Part shown: piece after piece, positions 4,828 to 21,811 of the stretch | Layout of the letters: every line of letters starts with the position of its first letter | How positions within the stretch are numbered: the first letter of the stretch is position 1 | From: an uncultured Rikenellaceae bacterium | Lineage (GTDB): Bacteria; Bacteroidota; Bacteroidia; Bacteroidales; VadinHA17 | DNA length: 64,000 bases | Reading direction: 5' to 3' | Assembly (NCBI GenBank): GCA_964642615.1 | Contig: CAZXSW010000003.1 | Span: forward strand, 17,950-81,949 | The notes under the pieces: model-generated | The model's database searches: none | The model's input: only the letters and a program-made list of their open reading frames with translations | What the model was told of the DNA's origin: nothing | Position numbers and translations under genes: made by a program

Positions 4828-4835
4828 GAACCTAT

Positions 4836-5660
4836 ATGGCAGTCAGAAAGATCAAACCTGTAACACCAGGTCAGAGACACAAGATCATCAGCGCTTTTGA
4901 TACGATCACAAGTGCTGTGCCGGAGAAATCCCTTCTCAGACCGCTGAGTAAATCAGGAGGAAGGAATGTTAACGGCAAAAGGACTATGAGGTACATCGGC
5001 GGCGGTCACAAGAAGATGTACAGGGTAATCGATTTCCTCAGGGAAAAAGACGGCATGAATGCTACTGTCAAGACAATTGAATATGATCCCAACAGGTCAT
5101 CGAGGATTGCGCTTGTAGTTTACGAAGACGGAGAGAAGAGATACATTATTGCGCCTGCCGGACTGCAGGTGGGGCAGAAGGTTCTGTCGGGAAAGGAGGC
5201 AGCTCCTGAGATCGGCAATGCTTTGTTCCTTAGTGATATTCCTCTTGGAACCATTGTTCACAACATTGAGCTCAAGCCTGGAAAAGGTGCAGCCATGGCA
5301 CGCAGTGCCGGTACTTATGCACAGTTGTCGGCAAGGGAAGGTAAATATGCCACCATCAAGCTTCCTTCGGGAGAGACAAGGCTGGTGCTTACCTCCTGCA
5401 GGGCTACAATTGGAACTGTATCCAATGGTGATCACAACCTTGAGAGATCTGGTAAAGCCGGACGTTCAAGGTGGCAGGGCCGCAGGCCAAGGGTCAGGGG
5501 TGTTGTTATGAACCCGGTTGATCACCCGATGGGTGGTGGTGAAGGAAGAGCTTCAGGAGGTCATCCAAGATCAAGGAAAGGTCTTCCGGCCAAGGGATAT
5601 AAGACCCGTGACAAGAAGAAATACTCCGCTAAACTGATTGTTGAAAGAAGGAAAAAATAA
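4836..5660 (+). CDS. rplB: 50S ribosomal protein L2
   Basis: 274 aa; ...[13 protein letters not shown]... and ...[13 protein letters not shown]... L2 motifs. Confidence 0.97.
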
Positions 5661-17758: not shown

Positions 17759-19042
<1,284 letters not shown>

Positions 19043-19091
19043 TGCGGAACTGATAAGATCAGGCCAACCCACAGACCTACAGTTTTTTTTT

Positions 19092-19124
19092 GCAACACAG
19101 GGCAATCCCCTGTGTTGCTTTTTT
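19092..19124 (+). terminator. intrinsic terminator after eno
   Basis: GCAACACAGGG (19092-19102) pairs with CCCTGTGTTGC (19108-19118), then TTTTTT. Confidence 0.8.
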
Positions 19125-19242
19125 ATCTCTGCCCCTCATCTGAAGAGAGTTTCGGGAGTTATTAACAATTGTTGATATCTTTTGTTTATATCATGTGTAG
19201 AACTATGAGCCACAGACTCTTGGATTCAATCCTCATTTATAT

Positions 19243-19250
19243 TAAATTTG
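19243..19250 (+). promoter_or_regulatory. candidate -7 box (TAAATTTG) ahead of the structured non-coding block
   Basis: Exact TAnnTTTG match in an AT-rich stretch immediately 5' of the GC-enriched hairpin-dense region. Confidence 0.35.
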
Positions 19251-19256
19251 GTATAT

Positions 19257-19748
19257 CAGGTGAGCGATAAAAGACTGCTCAAAAGATGTGGGATCGGAAA
19301 CTTTTTCTTAAGTGAGAAACAATCTGGTCCGATCAGACCCTCGGGTCTGCGCATCAGAAGAGCCGAAGCCTGGGCCGGGAAACTTCGGTTTCCTATGTCC
19401 GGCAAGTCAACGAAAACCGGAAACGTTCTTTCAGCGACTGAGTCTCAGGGCAACAGAGAAATCCGACTCCGGTCGGATACAATCTGATCCGGAAACCATA
19501 TCCTTCGGGAAATGACAACGGAGCCTGAATGACGCTTCTTCCCGGAAGTCCGCCTTAGAAACGGACAAAAGGAAAGCCGGAAGGCAATGCCGTAAAAGGC
19601 ATAGCCCAAAAGCCATGGGTTGCAAATCCAGATCTGGTATCAGGAAATGCAGCCGGTCACAATAACAGTAACCTGACGCTGCCTGCAGCCTCGGTTGCAT
19701 CCAGCGAATGGGAACTAATCCTCGGAATAGTTCCCATTATTGTTTTGT
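19257..19748 (+). ncRNA. candidate large structured ncRNA, family not recognised
   Basis: Dense series of perfect short helices with UUCG, UCCG, GGAA and CUCG loops, all sensible on the + strand (coordinates in findings). An 11-bp terminal hairpin at 19707-19738 is followed by ATTGTTTTGT. There is no credible ORF. GC is higher than in other spacers. 5' end not determined: 19257 is a guess from the -7 box. Confidence 0.45.
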
Positions 19749-19894
19749 ACCCCTCTGCCATTCAAACCGGAGTCCTGCACTTTTCACCACCCCATACCTT
19801 CAACACGGCCACATGCCTCACCATAACCCAAGCCCGCTAACCCCTCCCTGTGTCTGCATAATTGCTATCTTTATAACTGAAAAACAAAAAGCAT

Positions 19895-21811
19895 ATGGCT
19901 TACTCAGGACTTGCCGGTTTTATCAAGACTCTCGCAGAAAAGGATGAACTTCATATTATTGAATCCTTTGCCGACCCTGTCCTTGAAATAACCGAGATAA
20001 CCGACAGGATAACAAAAAGCAGGGGAAAAGCCCTGCTTTTCAAAGATACAGGAACCCCTTTCTCCCTGCTCATCAATGCCTATGGCTCCCCTGAAAGAAT
20101 AAGCCTGGCCCTCGGAGGCGATCCTGCCACCACAGCCGCAGGTATACCTGAGCTGCTAAGGGATTTCTCCTCCGCCGGCACATCACTGGCCGGAAAACTG
20201 ACTGCATTGCCAAAGCTGGCCCGCCTGGCCGGCCTGCTGCCTTCAAAAACAGGTGGCCGGGGGAAATGCCAGCAGGTAGTGATAATGAACCCCGACCTTT
20301 CAATATTGCCTGTACTGAAGTGCTGGCCCTACGATGGAGGAAGATATATAACACTTCCCGTCGTACACACTGTACATCCCGTAACAGGAAACGTTAATGC
20401 CGGTATGTACAGGATGCAGATCCTCGATAATAAAACAACTGCCATGCACTGGCAGAGACATAAAACCGGAGCATCACATTTTGAGGCATGGAAAAAAACC
20501 GGCCGAAGGATGCCCGTGACTGTTACCCTGGGAGGCGACCCCGTATATGCCTGGGCCGCCACCGCCCCCCTCCCTGAAAATATTGATGAGTATATCCTTG
20601 CCGCCTGGCTGAGGAAGAAAAAGGTAAGCATGGTCCGCTGCCTTACAAACGATTTGTACGTCCCCTCCGATGCCGATATAGTCATTGAGGGATATGTAGA
20701 CCCCTCCGAAGACCTTGTATGGGAAGGTCCCTTTGGCGATCACACAGGCTTCTATTCCCTGGCCGACTGGTACCCCCGGTTCCACGTTACATGCATCACA
20801 CACTCCCGCGACGCCATCTATCCCGCTACTATTGTAGGTATACCTCCGCAGGAGGACGCATGGATAGCCGAAGCTACCGAACGTATATTCATTGAGCCTG
20901 TCAGGCTGGCTATACAACCCGAGGTCGAGGATTTCCATATGCCTCCCGCAGGTATTGCCCATAACCTGCTTATTGTTAAAATAAGAAAATCATACCCCGG
21001 CCAGGGCATGAAGGTAATCAGTTCGCTGTCGGGAGCCGGACAAATGATGTTTACAAAATACTTCGTTGTAGTAAGCGGAGATACAGATATAAGGGACTAT
21101 GACATGCTCGCACGTCATGTCTTTGAGAACTTTGACCCCCGCCACGATATTATGTTGTTCAAAGGGCCTCTTGATGTCCTTGACCATTCGGCCACGGCAA
21201 TGTCGTTCGGGGGAAAGGCTGGCATAGATGCCACAGTCAAATATCCCGAGGAAATTAAAGACAGGGAGCATTCTAATGACAGTACCTCACCCGGCACTAA
21301 AAGCCTTACTCCCTCCTCCTTTAAACCCAGTAACCTGTACGGAAACTATAACAGTAGTCTGACCCAGGCTGGCCTGCCTGTCCTGGTTGTTTCGTCAGAC
21401 ACTGAACCTGCCTCTACAGATGTTGAAGCCATCAGGTTAGCCCTGGCCGGAGAAGAATGCATAAACAGCTTCCGTCTGGTTCTTCTTGTCGATAAAATGG
21501 TTGACGTAAATAACCTTCACATGGTGGCCTGGCAGTTGCTGGGTAATTCAGACCCTGTGAGGGATCATTATTTTCCTGCACCGCAGGTTTTGTTGATTGA
21601 TGGTACCTCAAAGGCCCGCAGAAAAGGAGCTTTCCCTGAGAGATGGCCCAATGTGGTCACCATGGATGCTGAGACAAGCGCAAAGGTTGATAAGAAATGG
21701 AAATCCTATGGCTTCAGTGAGTTCATACCTTCTCCCTCCCTGGCCTACAGAACACTTATTCAGGGTTCAGGTGAGCAGGCTGATGGCCGTGGCACAGTGA
21801 AGGTGGAATGA
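19895..21811 (+). CDS. UbiD-family (prenyl-FMN-dependent) decarboxylase, menaquinone-biosynthesis-decarboxylase-like
   Basis: 638 aa. N-terminus ...FIKTLAEKDELHIIE...DP.LEITEITDR..., ...GGRYITLP..., ...MYRMQ....T.MHWQRHKTGA.H... and ...VVVSGDTDIRDYD......FDPRHD... resemble UbiD as I remember it. Confidence 0.8.
   Translation: MAYSGLAGFIKTLAEKDELHIIESFADPVLEITEITDRITKSRGKALLFKDTGTPFSLLINAYGSPERISLALGGDPATTAAGIPELLRDFSSAGTSLAGKLTALPKLARLAGLLPSKTGGRGKCQQVVIMNPDLSILPVLKCWPYDGGRYITLPVVHTVHPVTGNVNAGMYRMQILDNKTTAMHWQRHKTGASHFEAWKKTGRRMPVTVTLGGDPVYAWAATAPLPENIDEYILAAWLRKKKVSMVRCLTNDLYVPSDADIVIEGYVDPSEDLVWEGPFGDHTGFYSLADWYPRFHVTCITHSRDAIYPATIVGIPPQEDAWIAEATERIFIEPVRLAIQPEVEDFHMPPAGIAHNLLIVKIRKSYPGQGMKVISSLSGAGQMMFTKYFVVVSGDTDIRDYDMLARHVFENFDPRHDIMLFKGPLDVLDHSATAMSFGGKAGIDATVKYPEEIKDREHSNDSTSPGTKSLTPSSFKPSNLYGNYNSSLTQAGLPVLVVSSDTEPASTDVEAIRLALAGEECINSFRLVLLVDKMVDVNNLHMVAWQLLGNSDPVRDHYFPAPQVLLIDGTSKARRKGAFPERWPNVVTMDAETSAKVDKKWKSYGFSEFIPSPSLAYRTLIQGSGEQADGRGTVKVE

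Follow-up and report, generated by a model that had tools for sequence, protein, structure and literature searches.

A stretch of 64,000 nucleotides (nt) from an uncultured Rikenellaceae bacterium (contig CAZXSW010000003.1), referred to here as the window, carries between the genes eno and ubiD a segment, 19255–19747 on the + strand, which is very probably a free-standing gene for a highly structured non-coding RNA (ncRNA) of ~490 nt, from a family absent from Rfam 15 and from the literature searched. The flanking genes, eno (17765–19042, +) and a UbiD-family gene (19895–21811, +) to which the Pfam domains UbiD_N, UbiD and UbiD_C were assigned, are separated by an 852-nt gap. An earlier note on this DNA had described the block at ~19250–19750 as enriched in guanine and cytosine (GC) and dense in hairpins, a description confirmed by both composition and folding: the GC content of 19300–19700 is 0.50–0.52, compared with 0.38–0.42 in neighbouring spacers, and the + strand has a minimum free energy (MFE) of −192.6 kcal/mol vs −149.6 ± 6.3 kcal/mol for dinucleotide shuffles (z = −6.83, with 0 of 100 shuffles equal), while the − strand yields z = −3.77. 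The end of eno at 19042 and the start of the next gene at 19895 were likewise confirmed, and a terminator scan recovered the terminator of eno at 19092–19118, followed by a T run.

The comparison with relatives began from the neighbouring protein. With UbiD as bait, 80 loci were collected from GTDB, all in Bacteroidales metagenome-assembled genomes (MAGs) and with 47–67% amino-acid identity to the UbiD of the window. Nhmmer searches with the intergenic DNA matched over the full length in 23 loci, directly upstream of ubiD and with E from 1e-60 to 1e-108; matches were weaker, partial or split in three loci (L026, L027, L028) and cut off at the contig edge in another (L006), and a profile search of the RNA-negative loci L029–L080 found no RNA. 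Within the clade that conserves the RNA, UbiD identity is only 55–67%, against about 75% at the nucleotide level for the RNA; conservation is thus stronger in the non-coding DNA than in the adjacent ubiD gene. Identity to the window reaches 0.6–0.96 over 19240–19760, with a high island upstream at 19160–19199; it drops to 0.1–0.35 immediately outside the conserved blocks and collapses after 19760. A pattern made from three invariant blocks retrieved at least 120 metagenome loci, and at least 125 full-length copies were extracted by an anchored regular expression, at least 107 of them less than 95% identical to each other. The gathering of homologous regions, which had been proposed in advance as a check, revealed strong conservation, with more than 100 homologues among the matches listed. 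The carriers are known from MAGs of uncultured bacteria or from metagenome contigs, sampled in fen, sediment, groundwater and activated sludge and, in one case, in the sea; among them are the Mb-scale contigs CAWGJX010000004 and OW818650, and the ‘fen_9xx’ MAGs stem from Stordalen Mire, a site for which metatranscriptomes exist.

Two alignments carry the structural argument: A1, of 25 loci whose collection made no use of the RNA sequence, and A3, of 101 non-redundant copies of the main size class, aligned with MAFFT on sequence only. On the 25 unbiased loci, RNAalifold returned 109 pairs, 50 of them compensatory, including helices that join the 5′ end to positions ~410 nt downstream. On the 101 sequences, a consensus of 135 pairs in 29 helices was obtained, in which 93.9% of 13,528 cells form standard pairs. 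The controls consisted of sliding the 3′ partners by 1–3 columns and of 500 column shuffles. Slid models paired 27–44% of cells, showed double compensatory changes in 45–60 pairs as opposed to 90 of 135 in the model, and had a covariation score of 0.054–0.085 as opposed to 0.262; none of the 500 shuffles reached any observed measure. The column pairs with the highest mutual information all belong to the 135-pair model. Judged by both controls, pairs appear to be kept by compensatory substitution beyond what phylogeny alone would explain, and the covariation in relatives called for by the earlier note is found in the 101-copy and the unbiased 25-locus alignments alike. A mutual-information scan for pseudoknots or tertiary pairs gave only clade-level signals, at columns 160, 191 and 377/378, and nothing convincing.

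Among paired cells, G-U accounts for 8.9% and A-C for 2.1%, and this excess, along with a promoter and a U tract on the same strand, indicates that the structure is read from the + strand. The same asymmetry bears on the proposal that a protein-coding gene, small open reading frames (ORFs) or a purely DNA-level element explains the conservation, which we consider scarcely conceivable. ORFs of 67–89 amino acids do exist in the region, and one homologue is stop-free over its full length in one frame, but 658 of 755 pairwise indels (87%) have lengths not divisible by 3, the three codon phases are about equally conserved (identity 0.700, 0.722 and 0.703) with no 3-nt periodicity, and the two longest ORFs of the window are open in only 7/101 and 23/101 homologues. 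No conserved frame, no preference for indels in multiples of three and no third-position periodicity was found, and the ORFs can be set aside as noise, as had been supposed. Compensatory substitutions and the preference for G-U over A-C are moreover not what a DNA-level element would yield.

The RNA comprises the following parts in the window:

19255–19747, + strand: the RNA, ~493 nt, with the 5′ end predicted by the promoter together with the first P1 pair and the 3′ end by the U tract
19256–19276, + strand: 5′ strands of P1 (19256–69) and P2 (19273–76), pairing with 19663–76 and 19655–58
19262–71, + strand: GAGCGAUAAA, within the P1/P2 5′ strands, invariant in the set collected independently of the RNA
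19277–19363, + strand: 5′ domain, in which P3 (19277–80/19360–63) encloses four helices
19365–19538, + strand: central domain, closed by 19365–69/19534–38 and containing helices 8–20
19539–19658, + strand: 3′ core, with 19539–42/19571–74, 19548–52/19562–66, 19576–77/19612–13, 19583–90/19599–606 and 19618–23/19649–54, then the 3′ strand of P2
19661–19676, + strand: invariant AAUAACAGUA, then the 3′ strand of P1
19677–19706, + strand: penultimate hairpin, of variable sequence, with a UUCG-type loop (helices 26–28)
19707–19738, + strand: terminal hairpin AAUGGGAACUAAUC / GAAUAGUUCCCAUU, stem sequence invariant
19739–19747, + strand: U-rich tract AUUGUUUUG, presumed transcript end and intrinsic terminator tail

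The RNA body starts with AUCAGGUGAGCGAUAAAAG, and its closing helices P1/P2 covary clearly: at column pair 6-551, 80 sequences have A-U and 20 have G-C; pair 8-549 has G-U in 46, G-C in 44 and A-U in 11, and pair 22-534 has A-U in 52, G-C in 32 and G-U in 14. Next to P1, the two invariant strings GAGCGAUAAA and AAUAACAGUA are predicted to form an A-rich internal loop or irregular helix of fixed sequence. The 5′ domain is built from the helices 19285–90/19350–55, 19291–97/19324–30, 19303–07/19314–18 (with an invariant CUUA in its loop) and 19334–39/19344–49 (with a UUCG-type loop); double changes are seen in 21 of the 27 pairs of its helices 3–7, and the 275-nt variant L175 lacks the domain altogether. 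The central domain bears hairpins of varying length (19370–19402, 19405–39, 19464–75, 19501–10) and many compensatory changes, exemplified by pair 253-260, which is G-C in 59 sequences and A-U in 38. Comparable exchanges occur in the 3′ core (pair 405-431: C-G 58, U-A 29, A-U 9; pair 407-429: G-C 40, C-G 37, U-A 7) and in the penultimate hairpin (pair 562-578: G-C 44, A-U 28; pair 556-585: C-G 60, U-G 22, U-A 14).

The consensus can be set against the eight short helices that had been picked out by eye. Six of them recur in the covariation-supported structure, namely 19334–39/19344–49, 19379–82/19389–92, 19464–67/19472–75, 19548–52/19562–66, the core of 19587–19602 and 19707–38, and two had to be corrected. 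The pairing proposed between 19292–19298 and 19328–19334 gives way to 19291–97 with 19324–30 (CUGGUCC), where 38 sequences have A-U and 36 have C-G at A3 pair 43-77; the proposed GCC-GGAA-GGC hairpin finds no support, as 19576–77 pairs with 19612–13 and 19583–90 with 19599–606. The long-range helices P1 and P2 and a conserved DNA element upstream at 19158–19193 had been overlooked. The CUUAAG loop (19307–12) was considered as a kissing-loop site for dimerisation and rejected, the other members having the non-palindromic CUUAGUUG or CUUAAAUG in its place.

Upstream of the RNA, four conserved or promoter-like features line up:

19158–19179, no strand assigned: conserved 22-bp palindrome GTTATTAACAATTGTTGATAtC, ~80–100 bp upstream of the RNA start
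19184–19193, no strand assigned: conserved block TGTTTATATC, adjoining the palindrome (columns 44–56 of A1)
19220–19222, + strand: TTG, candidate −33 element, found in the majority of homologues and separated from the −7 box downstream by 20 nt
19243–19250, + strand: −7 promoter box TAAATTTG, an exact match to TAnnTTTG

Promoters of Bacteroidetes follow the consensus TTTG / TAnnTTTG, by which we take the TTG at 19220–19222 to be the −33 element. With a TAnnTTTG box and, in most homologues, a TTG within the expected distance of about 19–21 nt upstream of it, the sequence has the form of a putative Bacteroidetes sigma-A promoter. The letters T, A, T, T, T and G of the −7 box are invariant or at least 90% conserved in the 25 loci, and the box lies 5–6 nt before the first base of the closing helix P1; in divergent variants, a TAnnTTTG box stands ~11 nt before GAGCGATAAA. 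The exact box noted earlier at 19243–19250 is therefore present, and it is conserved in all aligned homologues. Promoter-like and terminator-like signals thus sit exactly at the two ends of the covarying structure. The claim of a discrete ~0.5-kb structured transcript with its own promoter gains in silico support from the covariation, the −7 box and the 3′ hairpin, and the transcript itself is a prediction.

The palindrome, which in the alignment reads GTTATTAACAATTGTTGATAAC and is followed by TGTTTATATC, is near-invariant in the 25 aligned loci; some 45 variable nucleotides, with the TTG among them in most sequences, separate TGTTTATATC from the −7 box. It accompanies the RNA in unrelated contexts (L175, L108, L143, L159), and it occurs once in the 64-kb window, where 0.02 matches are expected by chance and no second copy was found. 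Three homologues (L016, L018, L003) have lost its right half and kept the left, which speaks for a DNA site rather than an RNA hairpin, and the possibility that the palindrome is a hairpin of a longer transcript was rejected on this ground. It is a candidate operator, which would bind a dimeric regulator, or a candidate upstream activating element of a stable-RNA promoter, and as such it suggests regulated or strongly activated transcription.

The opposite end of the RNA is marked by the terminal hairpin, which reads AAUGGGAACUA...UAGUUCCCAUU in the alignment and is followed by AUUGUUUU. Its strands AUGGGAAC and GUUCCCAU are identical in 24 of the 25 unbiased loci, the exception being L014, and in 101/101 rows of A3, an alignment partly biased by the search pattern. 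Terminator stems normally drift, so the invariance of this one points to a role beyond termination; UGUUUU in the U tract is at least 97% conserved, and we infer that the hairpin doubles as an intrinsic terminator. The conserved hairpin at 19707–38 with AUUGUUUU was nevertheless left unflagged by a simple terminator scan, and the loop closed by its inner stem GGGAACUA/UAGUUCCC is 10 nt long if no A-A mismatch is tolerated.

In the main clade the gene order is rpoA–rplQ–eno–RNA–ubiD–(histidine kinase, − strand), which raises the question of whether the RNA is a very long cis-regulatory leader, that is, a riboswitch-like sensor with a terminator, of the downstream gene. UbiD-family decarboxylases are enzymes of quinone biosynthesis or depend on prenylated flavin mononucleotide (prFMN). 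About 100 listed loci place the RNA 50–430 nt upstream of ubiD on the same strand, this adjacency survives the loss of eno or insertions upstream, and the 3′ hairpin with its U tract could serve as an expression platform. Against this, ubiD has a conserved −7 box of its own, TATCTTTG/A, 3′ of the terminal hairpin in 26/26 loci and at 19866–19873 in the window; in 24 of these loci (drawn from L001–L030) it precedes the ATG by 23–30 nt, and in the other two it lies farther upstream, indicating a very short leader and a promoter separate from that of the RNA. The spacer between hairpin and ubiD varies from 49 to 434 nt and is not conserved, and more distant genomes with the same eno-ubiD synteny (e.g., L024, L029, L031, L033–35 and L041) have the two genes 115–160 nt apart without any RNA. 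Nor was a covarying alternative antiterminator pairing seen in the mutual-information scan.

The RNA also occurs away from ubiD. About 17 metagenome loci among the matches listed have it in unrelated settings, where it is again preceded by the same −7 box and, farther upstream, by a palindrome of similar sequence. In L098, L105, L147, L156 and L200 its neighbours are an alpha-L-fucosidase gene and a convergent argS; L091, whose contig stops too early, shows just the fucosidase side. A convergent lpxA follows it in L108, L143 and L199, citrate synthase precedes it in L125 (a TARA marine contig), genes for an epimerase and an acetyl-CoA hydrolase flank it in L118, and in L168 it comes after a carboxynorspermidine-decarboxylase-like gene. 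The gene that follows, argS or lpxA, is convergent in at least 9 loci. We therefore regard a ubiD leader or riboswitch as very unlikely. Independence from ubiD, which had only been implied before, is supported by the separate ubiD box, the RNA-less relatives and these unrelated contexts.

The occurrence of the whole cassette, promoter and palindrome included, in several genomic contexts might suggest that the RNA is the non-coding component of mobile or defence elements, in the manner of an omega or bridge RNA, a retron ncRNA or a phage RNA, and comparable large RNAs (GOLLD, ROOL, HEARO) are often linked to phages or transposons. The RNA is single-copy, no second copy having been found in the window or in any of the loci, and no flanking repeats were detected around the block. 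No transposase, reverse transcriptase, integrase or nuclease gene is common to the contexts, in which the neighbours are housekeeping genes; the family pattern had no match in 2.9 million viral contigs, and BLAST of the RNA region against plasmids gave none either. Synteny is stable across a clade whose UbiD proteins have diverged to 55–67% identity. A mobile or defence origin is accordingly judged highly improbable.

The assignment to a new family was weighed against membership of a known one. The earlier note could not fit the block to any recognised RNA, and the 4227 models of Rfam 15 bear this out: at the gathering score they gave 0 matches in the 64-kb window, and at E ≤ 10 on 19050–19900 they gave only sub-threshold junk (Six3os1, a small nucleolar RNA, a hepatitis C virus element and the like), along with a match to ncS54 on the eno terminator. 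At E ≤ 0.1, the four variants L175, L108, L027 and L168 gave 0 matches. The families without a match include RNase P types A and B, transfer-messenger RNA (tmRNA), 6S, signal recognition particle (SRP) RNA, OLE, GOLLD, ROOL, HEARO and raiA, as well as Bacteroidales-1 and Bacteroides-1/2. ARAGORN found no tRNA or tmRNA in the window. In the literature searched, which included the 26-genome and 50-genome papers based on GC content and intergenic regions (GC-IGR), no description of this RNA was found.

If the RNA were a far-diverged relative within a catalogued family (RNase P RNA, tmRNA, 6S, SRP RNA, OLE, GOLLD, ROOL, raiA, HEARO or Bacteroidales-1), several traits would be accounted for, since size, a core with a variable periphery, a strong conserved promoter and single copy all resemble housekeeping RNAs, and AGGAAAGCCGG (19570–80) recalls the RNase P CR-I motif AGGAAAGUCCGG. 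This last likeness was rejected: the consensus in most homologues is GGACAGCC, and no RNase P model scores. Typical Bacteroidales, besides, carry an ordinary type-A RNase P RNA. The 6S candidate was also dropped, the consensus being not rod-like but multi-branched, with 29 helices closed by P1/P2. This fold, with two extra hairpins after P1, is unlike 6S, tmRNA and RNase P, and both Rfam and ARAGORN stayed empty on the window and, in the case of Rfam, on the four divergent variants. A hidden membership in a known family is thus, in our estimate, most unlikely.

Several observations weigh against reading the segment as an independent RNA gene of a new family. The transcript, its ends and its abundance are all predictions. 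Throughout the main clade, ubiD follows the RNA on the same strand; this adjacency is kept in L005, L097, L145 and L188, where tblastn finds no eno between rplQ and the RNA, and in L016 and L019, where an additional ~1 kb separates eno from the RNA. The persistent adjacency may be no more than inherited synteny, though a functional link to ubiD, or read-through into it, could still obtain. No protein gene is common to all contexts of the RNA, and no partner protein, ligand or substrate was identified. The stem of the terminal hairpin never varies, so that its pairing is unproven by covariation. All carriers are uncultured, and the exact-match collection biases both the apparent breadth of the family and the ‘invariance’ of its anchors: L081–L200 were retrieved by the exact pattern, which makes anchor-block invariance there partly a matter of construction and misses divergent members. 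In the unbiased, UbiD-baited set, the anchor blocks are essentially invariant, with single exceptions in L012, L014 and L027.

Size variation outlines the part of the RNA that all versions share. The full range is 275–602 nt: 275 nt in L175, 333–405 nt in L027, L028 and L159, 476–515 nt in the main clade, 530–548 nt in other contexts and about 600 nt in L108 and L143. A core of ~270 nt is common to all versions, consisting of P1/P2, the GAGCGAUAAA / AAUAACAGUA junction, the 3′ core helices and the two 3′ hairpins, and the MFE structure of the 275-nt variant alone gives the same core (z = −4.3). The 5′ domain (19277–19363) and the central domain (19365–19538) are expanded, replaced or deleted among variants; copies in other contexts have a central domain longer by 30–50 nt, the 600-nt variants have a different one in its place, and in L175 a single hairpin is left of it. 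Judging from these comparisons, the two domains are lineage-specific elaborations. In the ~600-nt variant (L108:1061–1662, L143:3271–3868, and L199), which stands before a convergent lpxA, the middle is wholly different and larger, and recognisable likeness to the main form is confined to ~40 nt at the 5′ end and ~100 nt at the 3′ end.

Intricately folded bacterial ncRNAs longer than ~400 nt are rare, and those that have been solved are mostly ribozymes or central components of ribonucleoproteins (RNPs); among the unsolved ones (OLE, GOLLD, ROOL, raiA), unexpected RNA-only assemblies have recently been revealed. The RNA described here is of such a length, has many helices and junctions and is non-coding, and it joins the large ornate bacterial ncRNAs by description, a class that implies no homology and within which it has no detectable relative in Rfam or the searched literature. 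Like this RNA, OLE, GOLLD and ROOL span several hundred nucleotides, with many covarying helices, GNRA and UUCG loops and conserved junctions, are non-coding and have an unsolved function; OLE also shares an occurrence in mainly anaerobic or environmental lineages. OLE is encoded in an operon with a partner protein gene, and GOLLD and ROOL are commonly found in prophages or near tRNAs. The present RNA differs in being single-copy and chromosomal, with its own predicted promoter, no associated protein gene and no viral matches, and the Rfam models of the three do not match it.

OLE, GOLLD and ROOL form homo-oligomers (PMC12286853). The raiA motif resembles our RNA in its multiple stems, one recurrent downstream gene, own promoter and terminator, presumed action in trans and conserved junctions, but raiA RNA is ~200 nt long and belongs to Firmicutes and Actinobacteria (PMC12968392), whereas this RNA is 275–602 nt long, belongs to Bacteroidales and has no match to the raiA model. 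RNase P and other housekeeping RNAs share with it a conserved core with a lineage-specific periphery, a terminal P1, single copy and a strong conserved promoter. In contrast to RNase P, it lacks CR-I to CR-V, shows no detected P4 pseudoknot and no model match, and has two hairpins after P1; in contrast to housekeeping RNAs, it is confined to one Bacteroidales group and is not universal. Closer to it in taxonomy is Bacteroidales-1 (RF01693), a Bacteroidales ncRNA with a Bacteroidetes-type promoter and an intrinsic terminator, located downstream of a ribosomal-protein gene; it is smaller and lies beside the gene for ribosomal protein L20. The RNA of the window adjoins eno/ubiD and has no cmscan match to this model at E ≤ 10.

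As to function, the RNA presumably acts in trans as a discrete stable RNA. The core would adopt a compact tertiary fold, to which GNRA and UUCG loops lend stability. Conservation is highest in the A-rich junction adjacent to P1 and in the terminal hairpin, which are therefore likely functional contact sites; together they may offer a contact surface for a conserved partner. A protein partner would be preferred over a small ligand or a substrate, a conjectural step, and we favour a role as an RNP or scaffold with a conserved protein partner. Live alternatives to this are a ribozyme and a self-assembling RNA like ROOL, GOLLD and OLE (PMC12286853). A bolder and rather doubtful extension is that the family represents a new functional class, a lineage-specific catalytic or self-assembling RNA with the junction as active or binding site and the palindrome as the site of a regulator, which would make it a Bacteroidales counterpart of OLE, ROOL or GOLLD whose fold and task are both new. 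Whichever of these applies, the family adds a well-delimited case, with more than 100 distinct sequences, a testable model, a natural minimal core of 275 nt and its own, apparently regulated, promoter. Its carriers, uncultured Bacteroidales of wetland, sediment and sludge, would have been poorly sampled by earlier RNA-discovery screens, and the RNA is a target for structural biology and a marker for a lineage-specific cellular process.

Some minor observations concern the surroundings of the RNA. The whole window has 0 Rfam matches at the gathering score and no tRNA, despite containing the end of the ribosomal-protein/rpoA cluster. In the spacer between RNA and ubiD, the arrangement GTCATTGCGAG...GACGAAGCAA is found only in L023 (~4900–4958) and L025 (~4830–4888) and is perhaps a small repeat or insertion. 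The UbiD-family protein of the window has 638 residues, of which the Pfam UbiD_N/UbiD/UbiD_C domains cover the sequence up to near residue 446; the ~190 C-terminal residues have no assigned domain, and their length is kept among the 80 relatives, in which matches reach residues ~620–637.

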